The notes: a model not told the origin generated them from the sequence alone. A DNA stretch of 24,000 nt from Rhodospirillaceae bacterium (GCA_020638575.1 JACKIH010000003.1:3044461-3068460); one strand, 5' to 3'; positions 2,343-24,000 are shown, numbered from the stretch's first letter. A program made the numbers and translations.

Positions 2343-2359
2343 GGTGCTTCCTACATGTT

Positions 2360-2539: not shown

Positions 2540-2835
2540 TCTGTGGGTCCTTGCATTGTCAATTTTGACAACGGGTTGAGCCGCGCTCCGCCAAGCCTGA
2601 TGCCCAGGGGGCGGTCTCAAGAGGAAGAGATTTTAGATTGCATCGTTATGAGATACAATCGGTGAAAGGTCAAAACTCAGAAGGTTTCAGGCAAAAGTAT
2701 TTTAACAAGTCTTCAATTAGCCGGCGGTGCGAGCTGCGTCGTTTTTTGTAGATTAAAAAGGCGAATATGCGTAAGTGAGGGCACGTAATCTCGCGTATTG
2801 GAGGCTCACGTCGGCCTAGGCGTGGTCGAACTCTG

Positions 2836-4079: not shown

Positions 4080-4089
4080 GGGGGCGGCC

Positions 4090-7379: not shown

Positions 7380-7895
7380 CTAATCGGAGACCGGGATGCG
7401 CGCGAACGGGATGTCATGGATGACACGTCCGTCCGCCGTCTGCGAGAAGGCCCGCAGATTGACGCTGGCCCGCCCGCCGGCAGTCCCGCTCCCGCTGTCA
7501 TCGGCCGCAATCCGGAACTCATAGAGGACGCCGGGGGCGAGGACCGTCCAGGTAACGTCCTCATAGTACGCGATGCAGTGATCAGCCGGGTGAAAGCAGC
7601 TCGCGAGCCCGAAAATTTCAAACTGCCGGGGGTCCCGTTCCCCGGAAACCAGCACCACCGACTCCCGCGCCGAGACGAGGAAGAGGGTGCTCTCCTCGCT
7701 CCTGTTCATCACGCTCATGTCAAAGACGATCGCCGAGCCATCCACGACCGATGCCGTGTCGATGCCGATCACAATGTCGCCCGCCTCGCGGGACGAGATC
7801 AGGCCGACCTCCAAGCTCTCTGCGCCGCTCTGGGCATGCGAGGAGCCGGAGGCAATGCATACGATTGTAATCACGGTAGCGAGACGAGGCAGCAT
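7380..7895 (-). CDS. exported protein of unknown function
   Basis: Internal ATG at 7895 gives MLPRLATVITIVCIASGSSHA/QSG, a signal-peptide-like N-terminus. The longer track ORF to 8027 adds an implausible leader. Confidence 0.5.
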   Translation of the reverse strand: MLPRLATVITIVCIASGSSHAQSGAESLEVGLISSREAGDIVIGIDTASVVDGSAIVFDMSVMNRSEESTLFLVSARESVVLVSGERDPRQFEIFGLASCFHPADHCIAYYEDVTWTVLAPGVLYEFRIAADDSGSGTAGGRASVNLRAFSQTADGRVIHDIPFARIPVSD

Positions 7896-8131
7896 GGCGG
7901 ATATCGAAATCTGTGAGGATGCGGAACAACTATAGCATATCATCCGCCGTACTCCCCAAGTCCCATCACGGCAAAACCGCTTATCCATCGCTTTCTCCCC
8001 AAATTTACGGAGCCGCTGCTCGGACATTGCAGAGCATCACCGGCGGCCTTGGCATCAGCCTGACCCACTTCGATGCATGAGTAGATCTCGAGGAATTGTG
8101 CTTATCGGGTAATCTCTAGCTTTCAATTGTT

Positions 8132-9007
8132 CTATTCAGTCTGACTCAGCGAGCGGTCAAACTCTTCCCGATTGGCGATCACAAGCGGCGCCTCTTGAGG
8201 TTCGTTCAATATTTCAGCAACATCGAGACGAAGTCGTTTCTTGAAATAATATAGCATCGATCTTCGAACACTTATCTCGATAACATTATCGTTCATCTCG
8301 AAGTCATGCTCTATTATCTTTTGCTGCAACAAGGGGAGCGCCGGATTTGCTTTTAGAAAAACCTTAAATACCTCTTGCCATCGGCTGTCCTCGTGACCGC
8401 GTGCCTGCAGTTCGCCGCCAATTCGGCAGTCCAGGCAGCGCGAGACAAGAAAATCTTTGAACGTCCTATCGATATGGCAAAAGGCACGCACATGCCACCG
8501 AATGCCGTCACTTCCGAAGGCGTGTGGACTAATTTCTCGCCACGCCGGATTTGCGCGCCTAGGATTCATCGACTGATAGTAGATTTCCACAGCCCGGCCC
8601 AATCTAACTGCGGCGAGAAGCGTGCGAAGAAGCTCCGGATCAACGCGGCGGTGTGGGATCGGGAGGCAGTCCGCGTCGGGAAGCTTCGAAAGCCAAGTCT
8701 CGCTGACGAGTAATGTTCCGTCGGCTACAGATCGGAGCTGAGAAAGATACCGATCCGGATCGGGTTTCAGGAAATGCGGCCTAAAGGCGGGGGCGGCGAA
8801 ATAGCGCTTTCCACTCTTATCGTAAGCCATGTTCCCTGGCGCCAATTCTTGATACAGGCGGAGGTCTTTTGAGGCCTGCGGCACCGAAACGCCGAAGTAG
8901 GTGCGGATGTCCGACCTGTTGATACCGCCTTCCCAGAATAACCGGAATTCGATGAACTCAAGCCGTTGCTCCACACCCCAGCGCAGGTCCGGCGTGCGCT
9001 CCTCCAT
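8132..9007 (-). CDS. BrxR/CapW-family transcriptional regulator (wHTH + WYL + C-terminal dimerisation region)
   Basis: N-terminus RLEFIEFRLFWEGGINRSDIRTYFGVSVPQASKDLRLYQ (BrxR-type wHTH). WYL-domain core YYQSMN...REISPHAFGSDGIRWHVRAFCH. Divergent from a defence operon. Confidence 0.85.
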   Translation of the reverse strand: MEERTPDLRWGVEQRLEFIEFRLFWEGGINRSDIRTYFGVSVPQASKDLRLYQELAPGNMAYDKSGKRYFAAPAFRPHFLKPDPDRYLSQLRSVADGTLLVSETWLSKLPDADCLPIPHRRVDPELLRTLLAAVRLGRAVEIYYQSMNPRRANPAWREISPHAFGSDGIRWHVRAFCHIDRTFKDFLVSRCLDCRIGGELQARGHEDSRWQEVFKVFLKANPALPLLQQKIIEHDFEMNDNVIEISVRRSMLYYFKKRLRLDVAEILNEPQEAPLVIANREEFDRSLSQTE

Positions 9008-9036
9008 GCTCTTATCCTTTCGCCGACGGTGCGTAT

Positions 9037-9077
9037 AGAAACTAGATTGACAGCCAAACGCGATGCGTCTAGTTTCT
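9037..9077 (+). promoter_or_regulatory. operator plus promoter of the DUF2188-qat operon
   Basis: Perfect 10-bp IR AGAAACTAGA (9037-9046) / TCTAGTTTCT (9068-9077). It encloses TTGACA (9047-9052), and 17 nt later TAGTTT (9070-9075) lies inside the right arm. Confidence 0.55.
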
Positions 9078-9121
9078 TATCTCATCAATCGTATGCCGTC
9101 AACTCAATGCCGGAGGGCGCG

Positions 9122-9364
9122 ATGCCCAAGAACGATCGCTACGTCGTCAAGCATGGCTCCGACTGGGCCGTAAAGAAGGGTGGTGTTGAGCGCCCCCAGA
9201 GCGTGCACGGGACGCAGGCCGAAGCCGAACGCACGGCCAAGGAGACCGTCAGAGGTCTTGGTGGAGGCGAAGTCCGCATTCAGGGCCGCGACGGTAGGTG
9301 GCGCGACTCCGATACGGTGGCGCCGGGCAACGACCCGTGTCCGCCGCGGGATAAGAAACACTAG
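9122..9364 (+). CDS. DUF2188-family small protein
   Basis: ATG at 9122 5 nt after GGAGG (9112-9116). Sequence YVVKHGSDWAVKKGG...HGTQAEAERTAKE...EVRIQGRDGRWRDSDTVAPGNDPCPPRD fits the DUF2188 pattern. Confidence 0.7.
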   Translation: MPKNDRYVVKHGSDWAVKKGGVERPQSVHGTQAEAERTAKETVRGLGGGEVRIQGRDGRWRDSDTVAPGNDPCPPRDKKH

Positions 9365-9397
9365 CGGAGGGCCAGCCTCCGCTGCACGGAGAAGGTA

Positions 9398-11257
9398 ATG
9401 TGGCCGGACAACGAGACAGCGCAGGATTTCCTTAATTTCTCCGGGGTCGCAGATACGGTCGCGGAGATCATCATTCAGGCAGACGGCCGACCCATCTCGA
9501 TCGGCATGTCCGGTGCGTGGGGCGTTGGCAAGTCGTCCATGATCAGGCTTGTTCGCGGCGCGTTTGACGGGCGTGCGAAGGGCCGCGCCGGCGATTTCAT
9601 CTTCGTCGAGTTCAATGCCTGGCTTTATCAGGGTTATGACGACGCGCGCGCTGCACTGCTGGAAGTTATTGCCACCGAATTGGCCGATGAAGCGGAACGG
9701 CGCAAAACCGGTATCGACAAGGCCAGAGAGCTGCTCGGTAGGGTGAACTGGTTGCGGGCGGCCAAATTGGCAGCCGGATCGGCGATGGCGCTCGCTCTCG
9801 GTCTCCCGCCAGTCGGGCTTGCGGGTGATGTGTATCAGATCGGCAGCAGAGTTCTGGCGGGACAGGCCGATCAACAGACAGTGGGGGATGCACAGGAGGC
9901 TGTTCAGGAGATCGGTAGCGAGGCGGCTGGCTTGCTTAAGCCCAAGACCGCGCTGACCCCGCCCAGAGAAATACATGCAATCCGGGAATGCTTCGAACAA
10001 ACCCTCTCTGAGATGAACGTGAAGCTGGTCGTCCTGATTGATGACCTCGACCGTTGCTTGCCGCCGACGACAATCTCAACGCTCGAAGCCATTCGCCTTT
10101 TCCTCTTCCTTAAGAACACCGCCTTCGTCATCGCCGCCGATGATGCGATGATTAAGCATGCGGTGCGTAGCCATTTCGACGGCGTCGACGACAAGCTGGT
10201 CACCAACTACTTTGACAAACTCATTCAGGTGCCCATTCGCGTGCCACCACTGGGCACACAGGAAGTGCGGGCATATATGATGCTGTTGTTTGTCGAGAAC
10301 AGCGCCCTTGAGGAAGCTGCCAAGGAAGTCATCCGCAGCAAGACGTGCGCCCAGTTAGCGCAGACCTGGCGCGGGCAGCGGGTCGACCGGGCTTTCATGC
10401 AATCGGCCCATCAGGGCCTGCCGCCCGAGCTGATTTCCCGGTTCGATACGGCGGAACGGTTGGCCCCACTCATGACAACGGCTTCGCAGATTGCCGGCAA
10501 TCCCCGGCTTATCAAGCGGTTTCTCAATGCGCTCTCGATACGAATGGCCATTTCAACTGCTCATGGCGTCGGTGTCGACGAAGCGGTCCTCGCCAAGATG
10601 CTGTTGTTCGAACGGTGCGCTCCGCCTTCGGCGTATGAAGCGCTGACTCAGGCAGTCAACACGGACGACGAAGGAAAGCCGCGAATACTTGGTCCCTGGG
10701 AAGACGCCGCACTTGGCGGTGCCGAACTGGACCTTGATGAGACCTGGGACGACGCGTTCATCCGCGAATGGCTGACAGTTCCGCCGCGCCTTGCCGATAT
10801 CGACCTTCGCGGGGTCTTGTATGTCAGCCGCGAACACGCGCCACTGATCACGCCCGAGGATCGCCTATCCTCCGAAGGGGCGGAAGTCCTGTCTGCGATC
10901 CTGGAACATCCGGATATGGCGGCAGCGATGCATGAGCGTTTGACTCGTCTGCCGCGGCCCGAGGCGACCATTGTCATGGATCGCCTGCTGGAACGTGCCC
11001 GCCAGATACAAGAGTGGGGAACTCCGCCGATCCTCGACGCCTGTATCGCCGTTTGCGCCGCCGATCCAACGCAGGGCTCGCGGCTCGCCGCCTTCCTGCG
11101 CGAGCGCCCCGCCAGCCAGATCAAGCCTGGAATCGTGCCAAAGATCGGCGACCAACCTTGGGCAAAGGACGTGTTGGGCGTCTGGAACGCGTCCAATGTA
11201 GCGGCGCCCGCAAAAGCGGCCATAACACGGGAGCTTAAGAAGCATGGGAACGTCTAA
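9398..11257 (+). CDS. qatA: KAP-family P-loop NTPase, QatA-like
   Basis: Walker A GMSGAWGVGKSS, FVEFNAWLYQGYDD, Walker B VVLIDDLDRCLPP. RBS GGAGAAGG before the ATG. Position and size (619 aa) fit QatA. Confidence 0.85.
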   Translation: MWPDNETAQDFLNFSGVADTVAEIIIQADGRPISIGMSGAWGVGKSSMIRLVRGAFDGRAKGRAGDFIFVEFNAWLYQGYDDARAALLEVIATELADEAERRKTGIDKARELLGRVNWLRAAKLAAGSAMALALGLPPVGLAGDVYQIGSRVLAGQADQQTVGDAQEAVQEIGSEAAGLLKPKTALTPPREIHAIRECFEQTLSEMNVKLVVLIDDLDRCLPPTTISTLEAIRLFLFLKNTAFVIAADDAMIKHAVRSHFDGVDDKLVTNYFDKLIQVPIRVPPLGTQEVRAYMMLLFVENSALEEAAKEVIRSKTCAQLAQTWRGQRVDRAFMQSAHQGLPPELISRFDTAERLAPLMTTASQIAGNPRLIKRFLNALSIRMAISTAHGVGVDEAVLAKMLLFERCAPPSAYEALTQAVNTDDEGKPRILGPWEDAALGGAELDLDETWDDAFIREWLTVPPRLADIDLRGVLYVSREHAPLITPEDRLSSEGAEVLSAILEHPDMAAAMHERLTRLPRPEATIVMDRLLERARQIQEWGTPPILDACIAVCAADPTQGSRLAAFLRERPASQIKPGIVPKIGDQPWAKDVLGVWNASNVAAPAKAAITRELKKHGNV

Positions 11258-12116
11258 GTCCGGTACAGGGCCAGGGCCAGGCGTTCCTCTTGTGCCGCCC
11301 TGGGTACCCGATCCAGCTCCGCCTGCACCTCCTCCGGGGGACGACGGTTCAGACAATTCCGGCAACAACGATTCCGGCGACCAAGACGAGCAGGCTCAGC
11401 CGGATTCAGTTCCACCGGCTTCTGCACCCGCGCCCCAGGCACCGCATGCGAGGTTCGGAGGTGCGCGCGCAAATCTGGGCAACTTTGCCCGCACCGGCTC
11501 GCCGGACGATATGCGACGCGGTCTGGGTCACTACGTTCACAGAGGCTATGGCGGCGCGCGATATGCTGCACAGCGAATGGGGGGAACGGCACGAACTGCC
11601 GGTACTCTCTACGGCGCACTGTCCTCTGCGGCGGCAGGACAGGCGGCCGGGCCGGGCAGCCCGTTTGATCCGGCTCTCTTAGCTGGGCGCTCCGCCGATG
11701 AGGTCATGGACGCCTTGGTAGAGGCTGTCCGTCCCGTCGATGGCACGCAGGATGCAGAAGCAGGCCGTGGCGCAATTCGCGATGCTCTTTCCGAGTTGCT
11801 CAACCGGTTCCCTGATGCCGATCTGTTGAGTCTCTCGGAGGAGCAGCGCCTATTCGCAATCGAGCGCTATCTGGCCCTTGATGTTTATGGGCGTTTTGCG
11901 CTCGACCTCGGCAAGACTGTGCAGGAGAAGGCGCCCAGCGCCACGGCTGCTCTATCACGTCTGAAAGAGATCAAGGACTACATCAAGGAAACGGTTTCGG
12001 CGCAATTCAGAGAGCTCAAAAAATCCGGGGAGTCACCAGGTGCGCGGCGCGTATCCGAAATGGCGAATCAAGCCCTGCGTGACACGTTTGCGGTCTTCGA
12101 GGGGTACGCCCAATGA
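11244..12116 (+). CDS. qatB: QatB-like protein (no known enzymatic domain; disordered P/G/D-rich N-terminal third)
   Basis: Sits between the KAP NTPase and the QueC-like gene. 14-nt overlap with qatA and ATGA overlap with qatC. Begins MGTSKSGTGPGPG. Confidence 0.7.
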   Translation: MGTSKSGTGPGPGVPLVPPWVPDPAPPAPPPGDDGSDNSGNNDSGDQDEQAQPDSVPPASAPAPQAPHARFGGARANLGNFARTGSPDDMRRGLGHYVHRGYGGARYAAQRMGGTARTAGTLYGALSSAAAGQAAGPGSPFDPALLAGRSADEVMDALVEAVRPVDGTQDAEAGRGAIRDALSELLNRFPDADLLSLSEEQRLFAIERYLALDVYGRFALDLGKTVQEKAPSATAALSRLKEIKDYIKETVSAQFRELKKSGESPGARRVSEMANQALRDTFAVFEGYAQ

Positions 12117-13393
12117 GAATTGTCTGTGCACCGGAGGATCAAGGATTTCAGGCAGGCCGGACCGCCGACCTCGGTGTTGTTCTCTATGGTCACACCAACG
12201 ATCCCCAGTCCGCATCTGTTGGTGCGGCGGTACGTGACATCATCCAGCGCCGCAAGCTGAAGCCGGCGGCACGTGCCTGGGACCTTTTGACCATAGCCTT
12301 ATCTGTCATTGCTGCCGACACCGGTGCGCGCCGTAGCGATAGCCCCGACGGTTGGACCCGTCAGCTCAATCTCGACATCACAGTCGGCGACGCCGCATTC
12401 TGGACGTCCCAAAGCGAATTGCTGGTTCGCCAGCTACACTTCCTGACGACCGATCTCTGGAATCTGTCGTTCTCCGGGGGCGGCATTCAGCCCGTCCCCG
12501 AAAAGCCGACTGCCGAGCCTGATCAGGACAGTGTTGTCCTCTTGTCGGGCGGTCTCGACAGCCTTGTCGGCACGATAGATCTCGTGACAGCACACAACAA
12601 GAAGCCTTACGCAGTCAGTCAGGTATCGCAGGGAGATAAGAAGACACAATGCTTTTTCGCTTCAAAGATCGGGGGCGGATTGGGCCATCTCCAGCTTAAT
12701 CACAACGCGGACTGTCCTGGCGAGAACGAACGCTCCCAGCGGGCAAGATCGATTATCTTTTTAAGCTACGGTGTCCTATTAGCAACTTCCCTGGCGCGCT
12801 ACTATGAAGGCGGTGATGTTACTCTCTATGTATGTGAAAACGGTTTTATCTCGATAAATCCTCCGCTTACCGATGCGCGCCTTGGCAGTCTGAGTACGAG
12901 AACGACTCACCCTGTCTTTCTTGGCCTCTTTCAGCAGCTTCTTGATGCCGCGGGTCTGCGCGTGACGATCAAGAACCCCTATCAGTTCTGTACAAAGGGC
13001 GAGATGCTTAAAGGCTGTGTGAGCCAGCAGTTCCTGTTCAAGTATGCGCATGTGAGTACAAGCTGCGGACGATATGCTCGGAACGGCTATAAGCATTGCG
13101 GACGGTGCCTTCCTTGTCTTATTCGCCGTGCCGCATTTGACGCCTGGGGCGTTGCCGACCAGACAGAGTATGTCTTCGCCGATTTAGCGCGTGACGATAA
13201 AGATCACGCCCAATATGACGATGTCCGCTCAGCGGCTATGGCCGTAGCTGCAGCGAAAACCGAAGGACTGGCGGCATGGGCCGGACCGTCACTCAGTACT
13301 GCGCTCTTGGGCGACATCACCCCCTATAGAGGTGTTGTTGGACGCGGCCTCGACGAACTAGCTTCCTTCCTTCGGAAGGCAGGCGTGAATTGA
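12113..13393 (+). CDS. qatC: QueC-like PP-loop ATPase, QatC-like
   Basis: PP-loop VVLLSGGLDSLVGT in the C-terminal half. Cys cluster CGRYARNGYKHCGRCLPCLIRR, like the QueC zinc site. Extra roughly 140-aa N-terminal region. Confidence 0.85.
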   Translation: MRIVCAPEDQGFQAGRTADLGVVLYGHTNDPQSASVGAAVRDIIQRRKLKPAARAWDLLTIALSVIAADTGARRSDSPDGWTRQLNLDITVGDAAFWTSQSELLVRQLHFLTTDLWNLSFSGGGIQPVPEKPTAEPDQDSVVLLSGGLDSLVGTIDLVTAHNKKPYAVSQVSQGDKKTQCFFASKIGGGLGHLQLNHNADCPGENERSQRARSIIFLSYGVLLATSLARYYEGGDVTLYVCENGFISINPPLTDARLGSLSTRTTHPVFLGLFQQLLDAAGLRVTIKNPYQFCTKGEMLKGCVSQQFLFKYAHVSTSCGRYARNGYKHCGRCLPCLIRRAAFDAWGVADQTEYVFADLARDDKDHAQYDDVRSAAMAVAAAKTEGLAAWAGPSLSTALLGDITPYRGVVGRGLDELASFLRKAGVN

Positions 13394-14157
13394 TCGATTT
13401 CCACTGTCACATTGATCTCTATCCAGACCCACAACACGTTGCCCGCGCATGTGATGCTCGCGGTCTTCACGTGCTCTCGGTGACGACAACACCCAGCGCC
13501 TGGCACGGCACTTCAGCTCTTGCGCATGGCAGGATCCGTACAGCCCTTGGCCTCCATCCGCAGCTTGCACACGAACGGCATGGGGAACTTGCTCTGTTCG
13601 AGGAGCTGCTGCCGCAGGCGCGCTATGTCGGAGAGATCGGGCTTGATGGCGCACCAGAGTTCCGCGCCAACTGGCAGGTCCAGGAGACGGTCTTTCGATG
13701 CATCCTGGATGTCTGTGCCAAAGCTGGCGGGCGGATCATGTCGATCCACAGCCGGCGTGCGAGCAAGGCTGTACTTGACTGCCTTGCGACGCAGCCGGAT
13801 TCGGGCGTTCCGGTCCTGCACTGGTTTTCCGGTACGACGCGCGATCTCGACAGGGCCATTGAATTCGGGTGCTGGTTCAGTGTTGGTCCGGCCATGCTGA
13901 GGGGAGAGAGAGGGAGAGCATTGGCTGCGCGAATGCCCCGCGAACGTGTCCTCACAGAATCGGACGGGCCATTTGCACAGATCGAAGGGCGATCAGCCTG
14001 GCCCTGGGAAGTCGACAGAGCCGTAGCCGGACTGGCAGCCTTGTGGGGAATCGACGAGCGCAAGGCACAGGTGGTGCTGGACGACAATCTTCGGCACTTG
14101 GCCCAATGGTCCCGAGCAGGGCGTGCCGAGCCTCCAGATTCCGGGATGCGAACGTGA
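13390..14157 (+). CDS. qatD: TatD-family metal-dependent hydrolase/DNase, QatD-like
   Basis: TTG start overlapping the qatC stop (TTGA). Motifs MIDFHCHIDL, YVGEIGLDG, MSIHSRRA, VLHWFSG, LTESDGPF. Confidence 0.85.
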   Translation: MIDFHCHIDLYPDPQHVARACDARGLHVLSVTTTPSAWHGTSALAHGRIRTALGLHPQLAHERHGELALFEELLPQARYVGEIGLDGAPEFRANWQVQETVFRCILDVCAKAGGRIMSIHSRRASKAVLDCLATQPDSGVPVLHWFSGTTRDLDRAIEFGCWFSVGPAMLRGERGRALAARMPRERVLTESDGPFAQIEGRSAWPWEVDRAVAGLAALWGIDERKAQVVLDDNLRHLAQWSRAGRAEPPDSGMRT

Positions 14158-15728
14158 CGGGCTCTGTCGTCTATCTGTTTGTCGACACCAACCTTCTCAT
14201 CCAGTGCCGTCCTCTCGAGCAACTGGACTGGTCGCCATGGAGCAACTTTGAAGAGGTGCGGCTGATTGTATCTAATCCGGTCCTGCGAGAGATGGATTAC
14301 CGCAAGAATAAGGGCCAGGACCGCCTCGGTAGTCGCGCTCGGGCAGCATCAGCCATGTTTCGCAAGATGTTGCCGGACGGGCAGAAGACTATTCGGGAGA
14401 GCCGACCGCGCGTCCTTCTCTCCATCGAGCCTCAGCACCGATATAGCAGGGACCTCGAAGACCGGCTGAACTACGATGAGCGCGACGACCAGCTCATCGG
14501 CACTATCCACGAATTCGCAAGGGGCAATCCGGGTAGCGATGTGCGGCTGCTGACCCATGATACGACCCCGCTCTACTCGGCCCGAGCCCATGGGTTGGCA
14601 GCGGCGGTGATACCCGACGACTGGCTGCTGCCGCCCGAAAAAAGTGAAACCGAGAAAGAGCTGTCGGCGCTGAAGGCGGAGAATGCCCGGTTGAAGAAAG
14701 CCGAGCCTTCCTTCGCGGTACGATGCGCAAACACCGAAGGGACCGAAATCACGCGCTATGAAGGTTCGTATACGAGGTACGAGCCGCTGACAGACGACGA
14801 CGTAGATGGTCTGATGGCGCGCCTGAAGGAGTGCTTCCCTCCTGAGACCGACTTCGGGCCAAGAGAGCCTGCGGAACGCGATGCACCGCCGGTGGGCGGG
14901 TTGCGCGTTTCTGGCATGAAGCAGATCTTCACACCGGCCACGGACGAAGAAATCGCAGAATATCTTGGCGAATCATACCCGAACTGGCTGACAAAGTGCG
15001 AAGAAATCCTGCGAAACCACCATTGGACGCTTCAAAAAGAAGAAACTGTACTGGCCTTTGTATTCCTGGCTGAGAATAACGGCACTCGCCCAGCGACCGA
15101 TGCTCTGATCACAATCGAGGCTCAGAGCCAATTCGAGGTTAGGCCTCCTCCGTCAAAAAGGCGCGATGAGCAACAGAGCGACGATGATGACGGGCCGCGC
15201 ATGCCCGAGTTGCCGCGTCCGCCCGCAGTCCCTCATGGCCGCTGGCGATCGTCAGTCGGCAGCCAGTCAACTGGCCTGTACACAACCATGCTCCAGCGCT
15301 CCCTCCGCGGCATGCCGGGTTTTGCCGGCTTTGGCAGTAGCGTATTTGACGAGAGAGTCCTGCAACCTCCGATTATTCCCCCACTACATGATCCAAATGC
15401 ATTCTACTACAGTTCGGGCCGGTCGGGCGTGCCTCAAGAATCCTTCGCCCTGGAATGTGATCAGTGGCGCCACGAAGACGGGGAAGAGCCGTTTGTCGGT
15501 GAGATCTGCGTGCCTGCCGGTCAGCAAGAGGCCAAGGGCGCACTGATCTGTCGTATCCAAGCAAGCAACCTCTCCAGAGCCGTGTCCCTCAAGATTCCGG
15601 TGCACATAGCCATCGAGCATGTCCGAGCCTTTGACGATGCCGAGAAAATGGTCGAGGCCCTGACAATGCGACCGAGTTTTCGGATCAAGCCATCTTCAGG
15701 ACAATCCGGCACAGGCGGATCTGCCTGA
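14154..15728 (+). CDS. PIN-like nuclease domain protein with coiled-coil linker and unrecognised roughly 320-aa C-terminal region
   Basis: GTG at 14154 overlaps the qatD stop (GTGA). N-terminus VVYLFVDTNLLIQ, then VLREMD, ERDDQLIG and LLTHDTT give the four acidic PIN positions. The track start at 13869 lies inside qatD. Confidence 0.65.
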   Translation: MTGSVVYLFVDTNLLIQCRPLEQLDWSPWSNFEEVRLIVSNPVLREMDYRKNKGQDRLGSRARAASAMFRKMLPDGQKTIRESRPRVLLSIEPQHRYSRDLEDRLNYDERDDQLIGTIHEFARGNPGSDVRLLTHDTTPLYSARAHGLAAAVIPDDWLLPPEKSETEKELSALKAENARLKKAEPSFAVRCANTEGTEITRYEGSYTRYEPLTDDDVDGLMARLKECFPPETDFGPREPAERDAPPVGGLRVSGMKQIFTPATDEEIAEYLGESYPNWLTKCEEILRNHHWTLQKEETVLAFVFLAENNGTRPATDALITIEAQSQFEVRPPPSKRRDEQQSDDDDGPRMPELPRPPAVPHGRWRSSVGSQSTGLYTTMLQRSLRGMPGFAGFGSSVFDERVLQPPIIPPLHDPNAFYYSSGRSGVPQESFALECDQWRHEDGEEPFVGEICVPAGQQEAKGALICRIQASNLSRAVSLKIPVHIAIEHVRAFDDAEKMVEALTMRPSFRIKPSSGQSGTGGSA

Positions 15729-15912
15729 TATTCCTGCTATTGAGCCATGGTGACACCCGGTGCGGGGGTGCGTCCGGCACAAGAGCCGGACCGGGCTCTC
15801 GTGAACCGAACCCCGGCTCTTCCGGGTTTCGGCCATACGGCTTCGATCCCTTGCACATACCAGTGGACAGCGCCATTCCGGCGCTGAACTTCCTATTGAA
15901 CATAAGGGGTTA

Positions 15913-15931
15913 GGGAAGGCGCCGCCTTCCC
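15913..15931 (+). terminator. GC-rich palindromic hairpin downstream of the qat-PIN operon
   Basis: GGGAAGGCG-c-CGCCTTCCC, followed by TCCCTTGG. 185 nt after the PIN gene stop. Confidence 0.35.
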
Positions 15932-16070
15932 TCCCTTGGCGCGCCTTCTGCCGGACCGGCAGGGCCGCGTCCGGCGCACGACCGCTTCGCTGGTCATGCC
16001 CCGGTCCGCAACCCGGCTGGCCCCACAAGCCGCACCGACCCACACCTATCCGTTCCTCGCCGGAAGGGCA

Positions 16071-16088
16071 GGGTTGCATGTGCAACCC
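16071..16088. promoter_or_regulatory. palindromic candidate operator upstream of the DUF2958 gene
   Basis: GGGTTGCA-TG-TGCAACCC (16 of 18 positions symmetric), 32 nt upstream of the ATG at 16120. Confidence 0.35.
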
Positions 16089-16119
16089 ACTTCCAATGGA
16101 TTTACGAAAGGAACGGACC

Positions 16120-16479
16120 ATGAAGCTACTTACAGATTCTCAATACAAAGCCCTGCTCCGCAACGGAGAACTGCGGAAACACTTCGAAAAAGAGGGGAAG
16201 GTGGAGCCTGATTTTTTTCCCGTCGTCAAACTCTTCACGCCCGATGCGTCCTGCACGTGGCTGCTGACGGAGCTTGACCCCGACGATCACGACATTGCCT
16301 TCGGGCTGTGCGATCTCGGTTTCGGCTGTCCGGAACTCGGCAGTGTTCGGCTCTCGGAATTGAAGGCCGTTCGCGGAAAGCTGGGTCTCCCGGTAGAGCG
16401 CGATCTTCATTTCTGCCCCGGCAAGACCATCGGCGACTACGCCGATGAGGCCCGCGCCGCCGGTCACATCAAGGCATAG
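16120..16479 (+). CDS. DUF2958-family protein (conjugative-element backbone)
   Basis: ATG at 16120 after AAAGGAA. Sequence LFTPDASCTWLLTELDPDDHDIAFGLCDLGFGCPELGSVRLSEL matches the DUF2958 pattern. Confidence 0.8.
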   Translation: MKLLTDSQYKALLRNGELRKHFEKEGKVEPDFFPVVKLFTPDASCTWLLTELDPDDHDIAFGLCDLGFGCPELGSVRLSELKAVRGKLGLPVERDLHFCPGKTIGDYADEARAAGHIKA

Positions 16480-16488
16480 GGGGCGGCC

Positions 16489-17154
16489 ATGGATAGACAG
16501 GACCTGAAAAACACAGGTGAGGGCGGGCAGCTCGGATTCGACATGCTGCTCTCCACCGCAATGGCCGAAAACGAGGCGCGGCGCTTCGAGCGCGAAACCG
16601 CACACCTGCCGGATACACTCGAAGAGGCGGTACCGTTCTTTCGCGGTTTGATCGAGCGGCACCACGCCGCGATGATGGCGGCTGACGTGGATGAGACCAT
16701 GCGCCTTCGGAACGAAGCCGACTTGCTGGCCCAGCGCGTGAACGGGGGCGACCGGGCCATTCTGGCCGACGAGAATGCGCCGGGCCGTGTATTGGAACGC
16801 GAAACCGCTGCCACGCCGGGAGATGTGCCGCTGTGGGGGCAGACCGGCAATTTCGAGATCCCGGTCTGCGGCGCGCGGGTGCGGATCGAGCTTGAAGGCG
16901 TTTTCGGTATTGGCACCGGGTTCGGATACTGGCCCGGATTTTCGGCCCATGCCGTCGATCCCGCTGCGCCCTTTGTCAGCCCAACCGGCTACCGTAGCTT
17001 CCTCGGTCAGTACGCGGGTCCCGTGCCGGGGCTGACCCCGGACCAGTTCGCGGCCCGGTCCGTCGAAAACTACGTCGCGGACGCCCTCAAAGGATGTCTG
17101 GTCGCGATCAAAAGGGAGTATCACCCGAACCGCGGGGAGGCGGGGGAACCATGA
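16489..17154 (+). CDS. hypothetical protein (221 aa), co-transcribed with the DUF2958 gene
   Basis: RBS GGGGG 9 nt after the DUF2958 stop. ATGA overlap with the following gene. No motif recognised. Confidence 0.6.
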   Translation: MDRQDLKNTGEGGQLGFDMLLSTAMAENEARRFERETAHLPDTLEEAVPFFRGLIERHHAAMMAADVDETMRLRNEADLLAQRVNGGDRAILADENAPGRVLERETAATPGDVPLWGQTGNFEIPVCGARVRIELEGVFGIGTGFGYWPGFSAHAVDPAAPFVSPTGYRSFLGQYAGPVPGLTPDQFAARSVENYVADALKGCLVAIKREYHPNRGEAGEP

Positions 17155-17471
17155 ACGTCCTATTTGTCTGCACTGCCAACAAGCTGCGCAGCCCGACCGC
17201 CGAAGCGGTCTTCTCGGGGCGGGAGGGAGTTGCCGTTCGCTCTGCTGGGCTCGATCCGGCAGCGCCGCGTCGCCTCACCGAAGAGCTTGTCGCCTGGGCT
17301 GACCGCATCTATGCCATGGAAGACCGCCACCGCCAGAAGATCCGGAAGAAGTTCCGCAAGGCGCTCGGGGCAAAGCCCATGGTGACGCTGCATATCCCCG
17401 ACGAGTACGAGTTCATGCAGCCCGAGCTGATCTCGTTGCTCACGGAGCGGCTGCCGGATCTTGGCGGTTAG
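17151..17471 (+). CDS. short LMW phosphotyrosine phosphatase / ArsC-like protein (106 aa)
   Basis: P-loop VLFVCTANKLRSPTAEAV (C-X5-R-S). Shorter than canonical LMW-PTPs. Confidence 0.7.
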   Translation: MNVLFVCTANKLRSPTAEAVFSGREGVAVRSAGLDPAAPRRLTEELVAWADRIYAMEDRHRQKIRKKFRKALGAKPMVTLHIPDEYEFMQPELISLLTERLPDLGG

Positions 17472-17673
17472 GCGTTTCCGAAAAGCAGTGCTGTAGTGCC
17501 TGCGGCGGCTGCGGCGTTAGGAGCGCTCTATGCCATCGCGCCGCGCGCCACGCCGCCAATAGCCGCTAATAACGTAGCCTCAGTATTGTGTTAGAGTGGC
17601 GGGTCCGCGTTGGATTTTCGCGTGGCTCAGGGTGGCGGGCCCCGCAGGAACTCCCGCTAATGGCACGCATAGA

Positions 17674-17702
17674 TTGCAATTGGTGTGGCGAGATGGAATA
17701 AT
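17674..17702 (+). promoter_or_regulatory. candidate sigma70-type promoter of gajAB
   Basis: TTGCAA (17674-17679), 17-nt spacer, AATAAT (17697-17702). It encloses the GTG at 17685 used by the longest ORF. Confidence 0.3.
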
Positions 17703-19622
17703 TGCGCCTGCTATTTGTGCGGGGAGAGGTGCATTGCGCATAAGTCATTTAAGAATAAAGAATTTCCGGGGATCAAGGAAGCGACGATTTTTCTTCCGAA
17801 GCATGCAGTATTAATCGGAGATAACAATACCGGTAAGACCACGCTGCTTGAAGCAATTGACCTTGTTCTCGGTCCTGATCGCCTCAACCGGATGCCGCCG
17901 GTAGATGAGCACGATTTCTTTCAGGGGCGCTATCTGCCTGTTCAGGTCGGCGCCGAAGGCGTGGCCGATGATGAAGATCCGGGGGCAGACAGCGAAAAGG
18001 ATGCCGTAGCAGCAGAACATGCGCCCGCTGAAGGTGAGCACAGCGAAGAAGCCCCAACCATTCGCATTGACGTGACAATCGTCGATCTAAGCGGCGAACA
18101 GCGGGCGCACTTCGGAGATGTAGTCGAGTTCTGGGATAATAATGACCGACAACTCTATGAGAAACCAGATCCAAAGGGCGTCGATCCTGCGCATATCTCT
18201 GAAGCCATACGTGTAACTTTTCTCGGCTGGTATGAACTTGGGGAAGACGACTTCCAGGGGAAGACTTTTTTTACGCGAAGTCTGACGGAAGGTGATACAG
18301 GCGAGCCGTTCAGAAGGACCGATAAGCAGCGATGTGGCTTCCTGTACCTCCGCTCTCTTCGGACCGGCTCACGCGCTCTAAGCCTCGAAAGGGGCAGTCT
18401 GCTCGACATCATTCTGCGGCTAAAAGAGCTTCGCCCGCAGATGTGGGAGGCAACGCTCTCTCATCTGGCTGAGTATGACGTTGCCAGCGATCCGGCACTC
18501 GGTATTACGGGTGTCCTGGAAAGCATCAATGCGTCTCTTAAGAAATATGTGCCAAAGGAATGGGGTATTCACCCCCATCTCAAAGTCTCCAACCTCACCC
18601 AAGATCACCTGCGCAAGGTCATAACCGCGTTTATCGCAACGGGTGACGGCGATCATGCCGCCCCGTTTTACCGGCAGGGGACAGGAACGCTGAATATGCT
18701 TGTCCTGGCGATGCTTTCCCAGATCGCCGAGGGCAAGCAGAACGTCATCTTTGCCATGGAAGAGCCTGAGACTGCGATACCGCCCTATGCGCAGAAGCGC
18801 ATCGTCCATGAGGTTCGCAAGCTTTCAGCCCAGACAATCTTCACATCACATTCCCCGTATGTGCTCGAAGAGTTCCAGACAGAAGAAACTGTCGTGCTTC
18901 GCCGCGAAACACACGGCGCTCTGAGGCAAGCCGATATCAAGCTGCCGGAAAGCCTGAAGCTGAAGCGATACCGGCAGCAGTTTCGCACCCGTTTCTGTGA
19001 AGGCCTTCTTGCGCGCAGAATCCTAATTGCTGAGGGCGCTACCGAAGCACAATCCTTTCCAGTGGTCTGTCGTCGGCTCTCCGAGATTAACTCAACTAAG
19101 TATGCTTCCCTTGAAGCTCTGGGCATATGCATCATCGATGCTGGAAGTGAGACGCAGATAGCCGATCTCGCCAAACTATATTCAGGTCTTGGTAAGCGAG
19201 TGTTTGGCCTGTGTGACAAGCAGGATGTGCAAGCGGAAGCGGCCATTGCCGCCGAAGTTGAGGCCTTGTTCATGCATGGGGAGCACGGCTTTGAGGATCT
19301 GATACTCAAGAACACGACCGAAGACGCCCTCAAGCGTTATGCTGGGGCCGTTGCATGGCCGCCACACCTTCAGCATAAGCACCCGAACCCCAGAATAGAC
19401 ATCCAAGCGGCCATCGCGGATTTGTTCGAGTGGGGGAAAGCGAACTGGATTGCCGCGGACTTCCTGGCGCAATGCACTGAAGCCGAAATGCCTGAATGGC
19501 TTCGGGAAAAGGCCTCAGAACTGAAAACGCTCTGTGACCCACCATCGGCGGCGGAAAACAGCGCTGACGGCAGTGAAGGCGCAGAGCCGGAGCCAGCTGC
19601 AGGGGACGCGGATGGCGATTAA
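17685..19622 (+). CDS. gajA: GajA (OLD-family ABC ATPase + TOPRIM nuclease). The longest intact ORF is given; the ancestral start appears to be TTG 17734 in another frame (see findings)
   Basis: Walker A GDNNTGKTT, FAMEEPETAIPP, TSHSPYVLE. TOPRIM motifs RRILIAEGATE and ICIIDAGSE. Followed by a UvrD-like gene with an 11-nt overlap. Confidence 0.8.
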   Translation: MARWNNCACYLCGERCIAHKSFKNKEFPGIKEATIFLPKHAVLIGDNNTGKTTLLEAIDLVLGPDRLNRMPPVDEHDFFQGRYLPVQVGAEGVADDEDPGADSEKDAVAAEHAPAEGEHSEEAPTIRIDVTIVDLSGEQRAHFGDVVEFWDNNDRQLYEKPDPKGVDPAHISEAIRVTFLGWYELGEDDFQGKTFFTRSLTEGDTGEPFRRTDKQRCGFLYLRSLRTGSRALSLERGSLLDIILRLKELRPQMWEATLSHLAEYDVASDPALGITGVLESINASLKKYVPKEWGIHPHLKVSNLTQDHLRKVITAFIATGDGDHAAPFYRQGTGTLNMLVLAMLSQIAEGKQNVIFAMEEPETAIPPYAQKRIVHEVRKLSAQTIFTSHSPYVLEEFQTEETVVLRRETHGALRQADIKLPESLKLKRYRQQFRTRFCEGLLARRILIAEGATEAQSFPVVCRRLSEINSTKYASLEALGICIIDAGSETQIADLAKLYSGLGKRVFGLCDKQDVQAEAAIAAEVEALFMHGEHGFEDLILKNTTEDALKRYAGAVAWPPHLQHKHPNPRIDIQAAIADLFEWGKANWIAADFLAQCTEAEMPEWLREKASELKTLCDPPSAAENSADGSEGAEPEPAAGDADGD

Positions 19623-21438
19623 GCTGACTACGAAGCAACGTGACGTCCTCACTGCGGATGGCCACCTTTTGGTTACTGGAGGACCCGGCTCCGGTAAGAC
19701 TACAATTTCGATAATGAAAGCAGCGCAAGCGGTAGACAAAGACCTATCCCGTGGGCAGCGCGTGCTTTTCCTAAGCTTTACTCGCGCTACTGTTTCACGC
19801 GTTGTGGAAGCCATTCAATATGAACATCAATTGCCGCCCGAACAACGCAAGCGGATCGAGGTCGAAACCTATCACTCTTTCTTTTGGCGCATCATAAGAG
19901 CTCACGGTTACCTGCTAGGTTTGCCGCGTCGCCTCACACTTCTTCCTCCACCCGCCGAGGCCATCGCCCTTTCCTCAATAAGGAATGAACTGGGCGCTGA
20001 TTCAAAGCTCAGCGCCGCGGCGGTCGCCGAGAAACAGCGACGCGTAACCGCTGAACGTGAGCGTCTGGCAATGGAAGAGGGCCGTGTGTGCTTCGACCTA
20101 TTCGCCCGTTACACAGGTGCTATCCTCCATGGTAGCGAACGCATCCGCCAACTCGTCTCCAACATGGTCCCCGTGATCGTCCTGGACGAGTTTCAGGACA
20201 CGAATGCTGACCAATGGAATGTGGTTCAAGCCTTGGGCCGGCATTCTCGGTTGATCGCGCTGGCTGATCCGGAGCAGCGCATCTACGATTTCCAGGGTGC
20301 CGACCCTGAGCGCCTCAATCACTTCCGTGAAGGGTTCGTCCCGACGGAGATTGATCTTAGCGACGACAACCACCGAAGCGCCGGAACTGAGATAGGGCTG
20401 TTCGGGAACGAGATACTGCGCGGGAGATTTACGCAGGAGAAGTATGTTGGCGTATGTCGTTTTGGCTATCCGCCGAACGGTGACCAAGCTTTTACGGAAC
20501 TTGTAATGCGTGTCTATAAGGCACGCAGTCGTCTAGCAAAGAGCAGCAAGAAGGATTGGTCTTTGGCAATCCTTGTTCCAACGAAAAAGATGACGCGTCT
20601 TGTTGCGGACAAGCTTCGGGAACCGCCAGCCGGAATGACGGCCGTACCGCATTCCGCTGTTGTAGAGCTCGAAGGCGCAATTCTCGGGGCAGAACTTATT
20701 GCGTTCCTTTTGCAACCATCTTCAGGCGGTCGGGATTTTGGGCGGTTCCTCGATTTGCTGTGCAACTATTTTCAGGGTAGAGGCGGCGACGAACCGGGTC
20801 AGGGCGACCTTAACACAGCCCAGAAATTCCGCGATGCCTATGCCGACTACGTGCAGCGTCAGACGGAAGGTAAAGCGATGCGAGGCAGTAGCCTTCTTGT
20901 CAGCACGCTTGCCACTTATCAGCGGGCTCGAGCCCTAGGATTGACAGGTGATCCCGACGTTGATTGGCGATCCATGCGGTCTCTCCTCGAGAATGGGGAA
21001 TGTTCGCGGCTTCAGGCGCTCGCCCACGAGGTAAGGAATCTGCGTTTACTGGATCGGGGCACCCAGCTTCGTCAGGGGTTGGCGGATGATTGGCGAACGA
21101 ATGGGTCTTACTCGAACGCGCTATCAATTGTGAAACATGCTTTTGTTCAAGAACATTTTGCGACAATCCAAAAGCCGGAAACCGGCGTTATTGTTATGAA
21201 CATGCATAAAGCCAAAGGAAAGCAGTTTGACGAAGTGATAATCTTTGAGGGCTGGCCACGGCTTGTTAAATGGAAGATTGTCGCGAATCTGGATCGTATT
21301 GTCCGGTCCAACGACCTGGACTATGATAATGATCAATCGCGACAAAATCTTCGGGTGAGCGTGACGCGCGGGAAATCTCGCACGACGATCCTTACGCCAA
21401 AGAATAATCCCTGCGTTCTCTTACTCAATCGCGCGTGA
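19612..21438 (+). CDS. gajB: GajB (UvrD/Rep-like SF1 helicase)
   Basis: Internal ATG at 19612 gives MAIKLTTKQRDVL. Motifs VTGGPGSGKTT, VIVLDEFQDTN, MNMHKAKGKQFDEVIIF, LRVSVTRGKSRTTIL. Confidence 0.85.
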   Translation: MAIKLTTKQRDVLTADGHLLVTGGPGSGKTTISIMKAAQAVDKDLSRGQRVLFLSFTRATVSRVVEAIQYEHQLPPEQRKRIEVETYHSFFWRIIRAHGYLLGLPRRLTLLPPPAEAIALSSIRNELGADSKLSAAAVAEKQRRVTAERERLAMEEGRVCFDLFARYTGAILHGSERIRQLVSNMVPVIVLDEFQDTNADQWNVVQALGRHSRLIALADPEQRIYDFQGADPERLNHFREGFVPTEIDLSDDNHRSAGTEIGLFGNEILRGRFTQEKYVGVCRFGYPPNGDQAFTELVMRVYKARSRLAKSSKKDWSLAILVPTKKMTRLVADKLREPPAGMTAVPHSAVVELEGAILGAELIAFLLQPSSGGRDFGRFLDLLCNYFQGRGGDEPGQGDLNTAQKFRDAYADYVQRQTEGKAMRGSSLLVSTLATYQRARALGLTGDPDVDWRSMRSLLENGECSRLQALAHEVRNLRLLDRGTQLRQGLADDWRTNGSYSNALSIVKHAFVQEHFATIQKPETGVIVMNMHKAKGKQFDEVIIFEGWPRLVKWKIVANLDRIVRSNDLDYDNDQSRQNLRVSVTRGKSRTTILTPKNNPCVLLLNRA

Positions 21439-21612
21439 GATTCTGGCGATTGAGGCCCTGGGAAGAAAGGACACTGGTCTGGATTGGTGCGGATTAGGCA
21501 GTCTGCTTCAACGTGTCTGCCTGTAGAGAATGCCGGGATCACTTTTCAGCCTCTTGCGGTCCGGAAACCGAAGTCCAAACCGAGCCCCCGCAACCAACCG
21601 CCTAATCTGTCC

Positions 21613-21643
21613 AGCCCGCCAGGCCCCAACCCGGCGGGCTTTT
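21613..21643 (+). terminator. rho-independent terminator
   Basis: AGCCCGCC (21613-21620) / GGCGGGCT (21633-21640), followed by TTT(G)TG. Confidence 0.7.
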
Positions 21644-21658: not shown

Positions 21659-21713
21659 TCGCGGACACCACGCGCCGGACACCACTCGCCGGACACCACG
21701 CGCCGGACACCAG
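21659..21713. repeat. about 4 tandem copies of a 14-bp unit (G/T)CGCCGGACACCA(C/G)
   Basis: Copies at 21659-21671 (13 nt), 21672-21685, 21686-21699 and 21700-21713. GCGCCGGAC is the reverse complement of the first 9 nt of the CRISPR repeat. Confidence 0.8.
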
Positions 21714-21755
21714 GAGCCATCATCGGCCCCGGCGGTGTGAACCGAAACGGAACAG

Positions 21756-21792
21756 GTCCGGACGACCTGCCCGCACAAACGCGGATTTGGGC
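21756..21792 (+). repeat. degenerate (ghost) CRISPR repeat
   Basis: GTCCGGACGACCTGCCCGCACAAACGCGGATTTGGGC is exactly 37 nt with 25/37 identities to the repeat consensus. Two further positions match variants seen in repeat 7. Confidence 0.55.
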
Positions 21793-22008
21793 TCGACAGA
21801 GCCGCTCCGACCACGGAAAGTTGAGCGTTTCGGCGGGGAGAAATGCCGGAATCGCTGTTGGAAACAGTGTATCTTATTGAATAGGAACGAGAATCTGGGG
21901 ATTTTCGGGCCTGTTGGGGCGTCGGATCGCCGAAACCGACCATCTGTCCCAGCAGCGTTGGAAAGCTACCCGAAAAGCTCAAACAGATCATGGGCTTCTG
22001 GAGGATGA

Positions 22009-22688
22009 GTCCGGCGCCCCTGCCGCCATCAATGCGGATTGAGACTCGGATTCGTACGTCATATCCAGGCGCCCGTGTCCGACGCCCTTGCCGCCATCAA
22101 TGCGGATTGAGACTTCTTGACCACCTCGTCGATTCCCTCCTTGAGTCCGGCGCCCCTGCCGCCATCAATGCGGATTGAGACGCCGCCGATGAGGTCGATG
22201 ATCCCCCACGTGGGTCCGGCGCCCCTGCCGCCATCAATGCGGATTGAGACCTCAGTTGATAGGTCATGATAGTGAACAACGGGTCCGGCGCCCCTGCCGC
22301 CATCAATGCGGATTGAGACCGCGGGTCTGCATGTTCGAGACCACCCCGACATAGCCAGTTCCGTCCGGCGCCCCTGCCGCCATCAACGCGGATTGAGACT
22401 CGAAGCGTTTACCGCATTCCGCAATGTACGCCGTCCGGCGCCCCTGCCGCCACCAACGCGGATTGAGACCGGAACAACGGAGACCCCGCCCGGGGATACG
22501 GTCGAGGATTAAGTCCGGCGCCCCTGCCGCCATCAATGCGGATTGAGACCTCGACGGGATACCCATCTCCTCCTCCTTGCGTCCGGCGCCCCTGCCGCCA
22601 TCAACGCGGATTGAGACTTAAGATCCGGTCGGTTGGAACAAGATTCACCACGTCCGGCGCCCCTGCCGCCATCAATGCGGACTGTCCG
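22009..22688 (+). CRISPR. CRISPR array, 10 repeats of 37 bp (GTCCGGCGCCCCTGCCGCCATCAATGCGGATTGAGAC), 9 spacers
   Basis: Repeat starts: 22009, 22077, 22145, 22214, 22283, 22363, 22433, 22513, 22581, 22652. Spacer lengths: 31, 31, 32, 32, 43, 33, 43, 31, 34. Strand assigned from the ATTGAGAC 3' end. The last repeat diverges in its final 8 nt. Confidence 0.9.
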
Positions 22689-22696: not shown

Positions 22697-23641
22697 TTAC
22701 TCTTGGGCGATGGCCGTTCCGATGTGCGCCGGAGCCAGAAGCCGGTACCGCCCAAGGCCCAGCGCCGCCCGTCCGCCGGCATGGGCGGTTTGCCCCAGCG
22801 CCAGGAGCGCCATGAATAGGGGGGACGGGGCGGGGATCCAGAGGTCGCCCAAGAGACCGACAGTGACGTCGGGTCGGGCGTACCCACTCGCCGAATGCCG
22901 CGCCTTGGGCGGCGCAGGCCGGCCAGCGACGTGCCACTCGGCGTGTGCTCCCAGTGCTTCGGCCTCGGCGTCCAGCGTTTCGCTATCCGCTGCCAAGGTG
23001 ACGCCATGCCATAGCGCCAGGCCCGAGATGCGGTTGGAGAGGCTTTTCAACAAGCTCGCGGGCCGTGCATGCGGCTCGTCCCCGGCGCGAACCAGGACGG
23101 GGGTGTCGAAACGCAAGATGGCGCCCTGGCACAAATCCACCAGGGGCACGCCATTGGCCCTTGCGATTTTGCGATCGCCGATATCCAACGGCCGGCGCGT
23201 GCCTTGGATATCGACGCCTGAGCGAAGGCCGTGCACCAGGCCATCGGCCGCTTCTCCGGCCCAGTCGCCCGCCACGCCGAAGAGCGTCAGGTCGACAAGC
23301 AGATCCGCACCCAGCCGGCCAACCTCAATGACGAAGGGTTTGGGGAAATCCATTCCCCCTCGAAAAGTGCCCTGGGTGTTGTGGAACAGGTCGTAAGCGC
23401 AGGGGGGAGACCACGGACAGGGCGCGCCGCTTTGGGCCTGTTGCGAGGCCGTCTGCCACAGGGCGGTCAACCACGCCCCGCGAATGCGCGCAGGTAGCTT
23501 GGGATGGCTGGCCAGATGCCCGGCGCCAGTGCAGCATACGGTGACTCGCGTCATCTGCCACAACGCGGCCAACTCTGCGACCGACACTGACGTATCCGCG
23601 CCCGCGGCCAAGTAGCTGCGAATTTCGCTGCTCTCGGTCAT
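22697..23641 (-). CDS. cas6: Cas6-like RAMP endoribonuclease (DUF2276-type)
   Basis: Abuts the array. Segments LPARIRGAWLTAL, CPWSPPCAYDLF, PKPFVIEV, and a C-terminal glycine-rich loop GQTAHAGGRAALGLGRYRL. Start uncertain (23641 or 23554; the track start at 23851 is unlikely). Confidence 0.65.
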   Translation of the reverse strand: MTESSEIRSYLAAGADTSVSVAELAALWQMTRVTVCCTGAGHLASHPKLPARIRGAWLTALWQTASQQAQSGAPCPWSPPCAYDLFHNTQGTFRGGMDFPKPFVIEVGRLGADLLVDLTLFGVAGDWAGEAADGLVHGLRSGVDIQGTRRPLDIGDRKIARANGVPLVDLCQGAILRFDTPVLVRAGDEPHARPASLLKSLSNRISGLALWHGVTLAADSETLDAEAEALGAHAEWHVAGRPAPPKARHSASGYARPDVTVGLLGDLWIPAPSPLFMALLALGQTAHAGGRAALGLGRYRLLAPAHIGTAIAQE

Positions 23642-23795
23642 TCTTCCGAAGCGTCCTTGGCGCTGGTTGGCTCGGGTAGTACTGGCATCAATTTTTGCAG
23701 TATATGCGCGACAGACAAGACACATCGCAGTGGAGGGTGCGGCAGGCCCAAAGCGCACAACGAACACGAACTCCACTTTTTGACGGCGCCTTGAC

Positions 23796-24000
23796 TTAAG
23801 GCTTCGGCTCCAGGCGGTGGTCACAGGCGCCAATATCGCGGCCGTAGTCACGGGCTGCCCGGAATTCGCTCTTGGGGTCGAGGCCGGCCTCGCGATCCCG
23901 CTTCATTTGGTGGGCAACGCCGGCGCGAAGCCGGTCGAGGTCCTGGGCTTGATCGGCCCGTGCCCGGTCGATTGAGCGCCGCAGGGGCCGGCGCTCTTCG
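23796..24000 (-). CDS. 3' end of an unidentified gene running off the window
   Basis: Minus-strand frame is open from 23999 to the TAA (complement of 23796-23798): ...DRLRAGVAHQMKRDREAGLDPKSEFRAARDYGRDIGACDHRLEPKP*. Not in the track because it lacks a start in the window. Confidence 0.4.
   Translation of the reverse strand, partial: EERRPLRRSIDRARADQAQDLDRLRAGVAHQMKRDREAGLDPKSEFRAARDYGRDIGACDHRLEPKP

Follow-up and report, generated by a model that had tools for sequence, protein, structure and literature searches.

Can a Gabija defence operon still supply its nuclease when the first strand of GajA and the rest of the protein are encoded in different reading frames? This question is raised by gajA in a 24,000-nucleotide (nt) stretch of a Rhodospirillaceae bacterium metagenome-assembled genome (MAG; JACKIH010000003.1:3044461-3068460), which is the whole stretch analysed, is referred to here as the window, and supplies all coordinates given below. 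The initial annotation of this locus had placed the conserved N-terminal strand and the Walker A region in different frames, which both the sequence and the coverage of protein profiles bear out, and had offered four options to account for this, i.e., a sequencing error, an inactivated Gabija system, homopolymer phase variation, and programmed frameshifting. Inactivation was found to be the best supported of the four; a genuine and recent inactivating deletion of one base, at codon 13 of gajA in an otherwise standard Gabija operon, is on balance the probable explanation.

The two frames divide gajA close to its start. From TTG 17734, the first frame encodes the conserved strand (M)RISHLRIKNFRG at 17734-17772 (TTG plus 12 codons) and then an out-of-frame tail, SRKRRFFFRSMQY, which ends at TAA 17812-17814. 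This plus-strand segment (17734-17814), a remnant of the ancestral gajA start, translates as LRISHLRIKNFRGSRKRRFFFRSMQY, a predicted peptide of 26 amino acids (aa). The TTG is preceded, 4 nt upstream, by the Shine-Dalgarno (SD) sequence GGGGAGAGG (17721-17729, plus strand), which can also be used by ATT 17733; the strong SD and the stop codon had been reported before and the sequence reads so. Purine-rich, SD-like runs also precede the TTG starts of homologues. The body of gajA (17772-19622, plus strand) lies in the -1 frame; it begins with IKEAT..., carries the Walker A motif GDNNTGKT (17820-17843), an ABC ATPase with a dimerisation insert and a Toprim domain, and stops at TAA 19620-19622. 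In this frame, -1 relative to TTG 17734, the longest open reading frame (ORF) runs from GTG 17685 to 19622 (645 aa) and reads ...IAHKSFKNKEFPGIKEATIFLPKHAVLIGDNNTGKTT (also given as ...CIAHKSFKNKEFPGIKEATIFLPKHAVLIGDNNTGKTT). GTG 17685 has no SD and falls inside the spacer of a promoter-like site, identified by consensus match only (TTGCAA-17 nt-AATAAT with TG before the -10 hexamer, 17674-17702, plus strand), in agreement with the earlier description of this GTG as lying inside a plausible promoter. The site is the sole sigma-70-like match in 17300-18000 (9/12 positions; mean of 0.4 matches in shuffled sequences). A GGGG run is located at 17768-17771, and joining the two frames after the Gly codon yields a 629-aa protein starting MRISHLRIKNFRGIKEATIFLPKHAVLIGDNNTGKT.

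A protein search with this joined GajA returned thousands of relatives, and the N-termini of the best 120 were compared. The canonical strand, M-x-x-x-x-x-x-I-x-N-F-R-G with the Walker A glycine at residue 29, was found in 112 of them (consensus MRxCRLxIxNFRG[IV]), so that the converse case raised by the initial annotation, in which homologues would start like the 17685 ORF, does not hold. The aberrant start MAHKSFKNKEFPG was seen in one of the 120 only, P0001 (MCB9959716.1), which is the NCBI annotation of the window's own gene. A position-specific scoring matrix (PSSM) was then derived from residues 2-13 of the 112 homologues and applied to all 12-mers in the six frames of the window. The 12-mer at 17737 scored 32.2 bits, with a runner-up at 5.8 bits (mean -36.7, standard deviation 8.2), and the ORF-frame peptide over the same bases scored -19.8 bits. 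The match of the 17737 peptide to the GajA N-terminus is far beyond chance.

Profile comparisons of the whole protein lead to the same result. The joined protein matched positions 1-589 of 600 in the PADLOC GajA profile PDLC00086 (861.5 bits), while the continuous ORF matched positions 9-589 only and scored 843.6 bits, 18 bits lower; the Pfam matches AAA_15, SMC_N and DUF2813 begin at residue 1 in the joined form only. The beta1 'IxNFR' strand that precedes Walker A is thus present when the frames are joined and absent from the continuous ORF. A Toprim domain was found at residues 425-495 (Pfam PF20469, OLD-like_TOPRIM; 35.4 bits, cut-off 23.2). Among the features of the GajA family, the ATPase with its strand (frames joined), the Toprim domain and an adjacent gajB were all found, and an uninterrupted frame from the family start was not. 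An AlphaFold2 model of the joined protein, built on a 35-sequence alignment, was of low confidence (mean predicted local distance difference test score 59.3), and its strands at residues 2-11 and 14-20 weakly support two N-terminal strands.

Structures of GajA and GajB have been solved for the Gabija system of Bacillus cereus VD045 (PDB 8sm3, 8jq9 and 8wy4; Antine et al., Nature 2024, PMC10781630). In the GajAB structure, the first strand is one of eleven in the ABC ATPase sheet that surrounds a central helix (PMC10781630). Residues 1-48 of B. cereus GajA (8wy4, 8jq9) aligned without gaps to residues 1-48 of the joined protein (MKFSNITIKNFRNF...GMNDIGKT), which proves correct the spacing of F11, R12 and G29 that the initial annotation had given. 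The two systems also share the two-gene operon, with an OLD-family ABC-ATPase/Toprim nuclease followed by a UvrD-like helicase, and the N-terminal register M1, F11, R12, G29, GK[TS]. Unlike its B. cereus counterpart, the window gene has codons 1-13 out of frame with the remainder. Moreover, the two proteins are distant in sequence (phmmer E about 5e-05, for the N-terminal stretch only), and the window GajA belongs to the proteobacterial PDLC00086 subfamily and carries an acidic low-complexity insert at residues about 70-105.

Homologous loci were also read at the DNA level, 80 from species-representative genomes and five from metagenomes, and 79 of them were tabulated for codons. In all 85, the frame was unbroken over the 28 codons between the start codon and Walker A, and the shift of the window was shared by none of them. 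Four homologues with 'MLP.HAVLIGDNN' starts (P0004, P0006, P0073 and P0102) had been suspected of sharing the frameshift; at the DNA level, each proved to be unbroken from a TTG start that had escaped the gene callers. Start codons in the 79 tabulated loci were TTG in 31, ATG in 26 and GTG in 22, and gene callers repeatedly overlook TTG in this GajA subfamily, which results in truncated proteins of the 'MLP.HAVLIGDNN' type. Possible disruptions of other kinds were also encountered. A 590-aa Logan homologue (P0012) opens with a peptide that looks out of frame, MLLVRIASIECHRLTSTTFSKGAICPP, before GajA sequence begins, which suggests a frameshift elsewhere in another homologue, and at one further locus (L001:4835-5767) the gajB call is merely 310 aa long. 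It may not be unusual for assemblies to contain disrupted Gabija genes.

When the window was aligned with seven homologues at the DNA level, the stretch between start codon and Walker A showed exactly one gap column, located in the window at the Arg12-Gly13 codons (17768-17773, plus strand), where the window reads CGG GG- ATC and homologues read CGN GGN ATC. This one-gap alignment, the profile coverage and the 85 in-frame loci all agree with the earlier claim of a 1-nt deletion relative to the ancestor. The claim had also placed the deletion in the G run, and here the loss of one base stands while its identity as a G does not. At the Arg-Gly site, the 79 loci carried CGG GGC (13), CGA GGC (12), AGG GGC (9), CGG GGA (2), CGG GGG (1) and other codon pairs, and a third CGG GGA homologue (L045) was found in addition to this census. 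On this codon comparison, the missing base is read as the third position of the Gly13 codon, where any nucleotide could have stood, and CGGGGATC is derivable from CGG GGN ATC. Since intact homologues with CGG GGA ATC and with CGG GGC ATC exist, the ancestor may have carried a base other than G here; loss of the A or of the C would be equivalent.

These codon counts bear directly on phase variation, in which slipped-strand mispairing between G4 (off) and G5 (on) would toggle Gabija. The shift coincides with or adjoins a G run in the first codons of the gene, where contingency tracts are typically found, and a G run near the 5' end of a defence gene is also what is seen in contingency loci such as the phase-variable restriction-modification genes of Neisseria, Haemophilus and Helicobacter. 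However, homopolymers become hypermutable at about 7-8 nt, and G4 or G5 is far below this length. Unlike the tracts of contingency loci, the 4-nt run is normal Arg-Gly coding sequence in many intact homologues (G4 is the in-frame state in 26 of the 79 loci and G5 occurs in three), and no length variation was seen: both assemblies available for this locus, described below, show G4, and no on-allele was present in the collections searched. With a tract this short, and one that is the in-frame norm in so many homologues, a phase-variable switch is hardly credible.

A sequencing artefact is a more serious competitor. Here gajA would be intact in the organism (e.g., CGG GGG ATC), and both assemblies would have inherited from the reads the loss of one base in the G run. 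Consistent with this, the MAG is a single 3.96-Mb contig, which points to long reads and their susceptibility to homopolymer errors, and the G4 run includes or adjoins the shift in a gene that is otherwise perfect and is followed by an intact gajB. Evidence to the contrary comes from the 90%-identity cluster of P0001, in which P0001 is joined by a single further protein, a 645-aa product predicted by Prodigal on a Logan contig of run SRR12358676. Logan contigs are built for each Sequence Read Archive run from those 31-mers of the raw reads that occur two or more times and are simplified with Minia3 (PMC12424806). The contig in question (15,438 bp, recorded in two samples) was 100.000% identical to window positions 7685-21637 over 13,953 bp, with no mismatch or gap, and includes GAATTTCCGGGGATCAAGG with the GGGG. 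An assembler or polishing error behind the shift is unlikely because this independent assembly is identical, including the GGGG, and an error-free de Bruijn contig of 15 kb implies accurate reads. Moreover, G4 or G5 is short for a systematic homopolymer error, and the ancestral base was possibly not a G.

The surrounding sequence also speaks against widespread error. QatA (positions 1-592 of 593), QatB, QatC, QatD and GajB (2-572 of 574) each gave full-length single matches to PADLOC profiles, and these neighbouring genes being full length, the assembly is therefore not indel-ridden; no frameshift was found in other genes over about 9 kb of well-modelled neighbouring coding sequence. Further alleles were sought in several collections. 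The base-restored allele was absent from the protein collection, where the 90% cluster comprises the two frameshifted calls and the next match is 80% identical. The exact GajB protein retrieved the same Logan contig only, an exact 36-nt pattern search of Joint Genome Institute metagenomes gave no match and hence no population variants, and no plasmid record was matched by megablast with 17500-19700. A literature search on the sequencing of run SRR12358676 found no paper. The sequencing-error option is thus weakened by the independent GGGG assembly, and we regard an artefact at the level of the reads as unlikely, though not negligible.

The deletion could also be real and tolerated. GenBank entry MCB9959716.1 (629 aa, 'AAA family ATPase') spans 17733-19622 and starts at ATT 17733, one base 5' of the TTG, so that the public annotation presents the frameshifted gajA as intact, without a pseudogene flag. 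GajA made from ATT 17733, or from GTG 17685, would then work with the non-canonical N-terminus (M)AHKSFKNKEFPG. ATT 17733 lies behind the same strong SD, the 629-aa product is the one annotated by NCBI, F11 and G13 are kept by chance in its frame, and gajA shows no further decay. By comparison, ATT is a very weak initiator that competes with the overlapping TTG, and GTG 17685 has the shortcomings described above, i.e., no SD and a position within a promoter-like site. The lysine-rich N-terminus of the ATT product loses R12 and the I3/L6/I8 hydrophobic pattern that 112 of the 120 homologues keep, no homologue starts with such an N-terminus, and the PSSM separates the replacement peptide (-19.8 bits) sharply from the out-of-frame one (+32.2 bits). 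A tolerated change is accordingly improbable in our assessment.

A further way to a full-length protein would be programmed or facilitated -1 ribosomal frameshifting, which would keep a toxic nuclease low and regulated. Re-pairing of a single tRNA is possible at U_UUC and at G_GGA: a slip of tRNA-Gly on G_GGA would restore NFRG-I and a slip of tRNA-Phe on U_UUC would give NFPG-I, and the expected N-terminus would be MRISHLRIKNFRG-I... after a slip and MAHKSFK... after a start at ATT. The ATPase frame is open over the whole overlap, so any -1 slip within 17734-17812 would give the long product, and as in the programmed -1 sites of dnaX and of IS3/IS1 transposases, two overlapping frames need a -1 join for the full protein. 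However, the window differs from those sites in lacking a slippery heptamer, an upstream SD, a downstream hairpin or pseudoknot, and conservation. By inspection, the upstream-frame codons AAT TTC CGG GGA TCA contain no X_XXY_YYZ heptamer, and there is no GGAGG-like internal SD within 17740-17765. The 60 nt at 17773-17832 fold at -5.6 kcal/mol (z = +0.85; 166 of 200 shuffles fold as well), and a 100-nt window gave z = +0.51. Scans of the window for Rfam families and tRNAs gave no hits, and a frameshift is needed by none of the 85 homologous loci. Unstimulated ribosomal slippage is normally far below 1%. With neither heptamer, nor downstream structure, nor a shifted homologue, the programmed-frameshifting option is very doubtful. 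We likewise give little credence to the idea that the offset is maintained as a translational throttle on a possibly self-toxic nuclease, acting through unstimulated -1 slippage at U_UUC or G_GGA or through competition between ATT 17733 (ATPase frame) and TTG 17734, with the result that little full-length GajA would be made within a crowded defence island.

A GGAAG...CTTCC hairpin was considered as a frameshift stimulator and rejected; it is weak in the window (z = +0.85) and stronger in two homologous loci that are in frame, L002 and L007. In these loci, an 8-bp hairpin, GGAAGCAA/UUGCUUCC (L002:163-183 and L007:460-480), was found in a 60-nt segment that folds at -15.9 kcal/mol (z = -2.9 and -3.5). 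It overlies the K-E-A...L-L-P codons just 3' of the FRG site, is degenerate in the window, and could be a coincidence of codon choice or an element that affects the translation rate.

An inactivating deletion is thus the reading that is preferred here. It starts from what was directly observed, i.e., a gajA split between two frames, the loss of a single base, homologues that are all in frame, a locus that is otherwise intact, and two assemblies in agreement, and we infer that the cells themselves, not just the reads, carry the deletion and that function is lost with it. After loading at the conserved SD and TTG 17734, ribosomes would translate the first 13 residues, within the first beta-strand, and then continue out of frame to give the 26-aa peptide. 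Re-initiation after the 17812 stop was considered as a rescue and ruled out; it could not yield the ATPase because the first in-frame ATG, GTG or TTG 3' of the 17812-17814 stop falls past Walker A. Full-length GajA with a proper N-terminus would not be made at normal levels. To judge from the architecture of ABC ATPases, a replaced first strand would be expected to cripple folding or ATP sensing. Translation of gajB may be affected as well. The last 11 nt of gajA are shared with gajB (ATG at 19612), an overlap suggestive of translational coupling, and early termination in gajA would probably abolish this coupling. The most likely outcome in this organism is a Gabija system that is inactive or severely impaired.

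The age of the event can be judged from the rest of the operon. Of 229 columns in which 33 other homologues do not vary, the joined GajA deviates at only one (R290Q), compared to 0-8 deviations for intact homologues in a leave-one-out analysis. The frameshift is the only lesion in gajA and is therefore very recent, not real, or tolerated; as a real event, it would be recent because neither gajA nor gajB shows other decay. Like the frameshifted, pseudogenised defence genes of bacterial genomes, this one has an early single-base indel in an otherwise intact, horizontally carried gene within a defence island; unlike them, it has no secondary decay yet and is annotated with an ATT start instead of as a pseudogene. 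A knock-out by an early single-base frameshift is an ordinary kind of event.

Some observations weigh against inactivation by a genuine deletion. The MAG and the Logan contig may share one run, in which case a systematic miscall of the G run would be common to both. The unrelaxed state of the rest of gajA (1/229) would be expected equally of an artefact, of a tolerated change and of a very recent mutation. Finally, some full-length protein with an aberrant 12-residue N-terminus could be produced from ATT 17733, which has the same SD and reads into the ATPase.

The remainder of the window looks like a defence island on an apparently mobilisable element. G+C content falls to 0.46-0.53 at 1-3000, and a MobA/VirD2-type relaxase is encoded at 3820-5622, followed on the minus strand by a HipA toxin kinase (5651-6979) and a WYL/BrxR-like regulator (8132-9007). 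A complete QatABCD defence system occupies 9398-14157, with four genes that are full length against the PADLOC profiles: QatA, a KAP NTPase (9398-11257), QatB (11244-12116), the QueC-like QatC (12113-13393) and the TatD-like QatD (13390-14157). Directly after QatD, a 524-aa protein with an N-terminal PIN_4 domain (14154-15728) was matched by no PADLOC profile and is possibly an as yet unclassified gene for defence or for a toxin. A DUF2958 protein and a small phosphatase-like gene also belong to the island. The second Gabija gene, gajB (19612-21438, plus strand), encodes a UvrD-like helicase of 608 aa and is intact (PADLOC GajB PDLC00104, 755 bits, E = 1.4e-227).

Downstream of gajB lies an array of clustered regularly interspaced short palindromic repeats (CRISPR) at 22009-22688, with 10 copies of the 37-nt repeat GTCCGGCGCCCCTGCCGCCATCAATGCGGATTGAGAC spaced 68-80 nt; none of the Rfam CRISPR-DR families reached threshold for this array. 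A Cas6-like ORF of 384 aa (22697-23851, minus strand) abuts it. A degenerate copy that resembles the CRISPR repeat is located at 21756-21796, and four tandem copies of the 14-nt unit CGGACACCACGCGC lie at 21662-21715, between gajB and the array. The Logan contig ends (window position 21637) just 5' of these tandem repeats.

For the annotation of defence systems, the GenBank call with its ATT start hides the frameshift, and a census in the style of PADLOC or DefenseFinder would count Gabija as present and intact in this genome. The locus would be of larger importance only if the offset were a regulated expression device, and nothing found here supports that. If the deletion is real, it represents a defence gene caught just after inactivation and before further decay and, beside intact QatABCD and CRISPR loci, would add a small data point on the turnover of defence islands.

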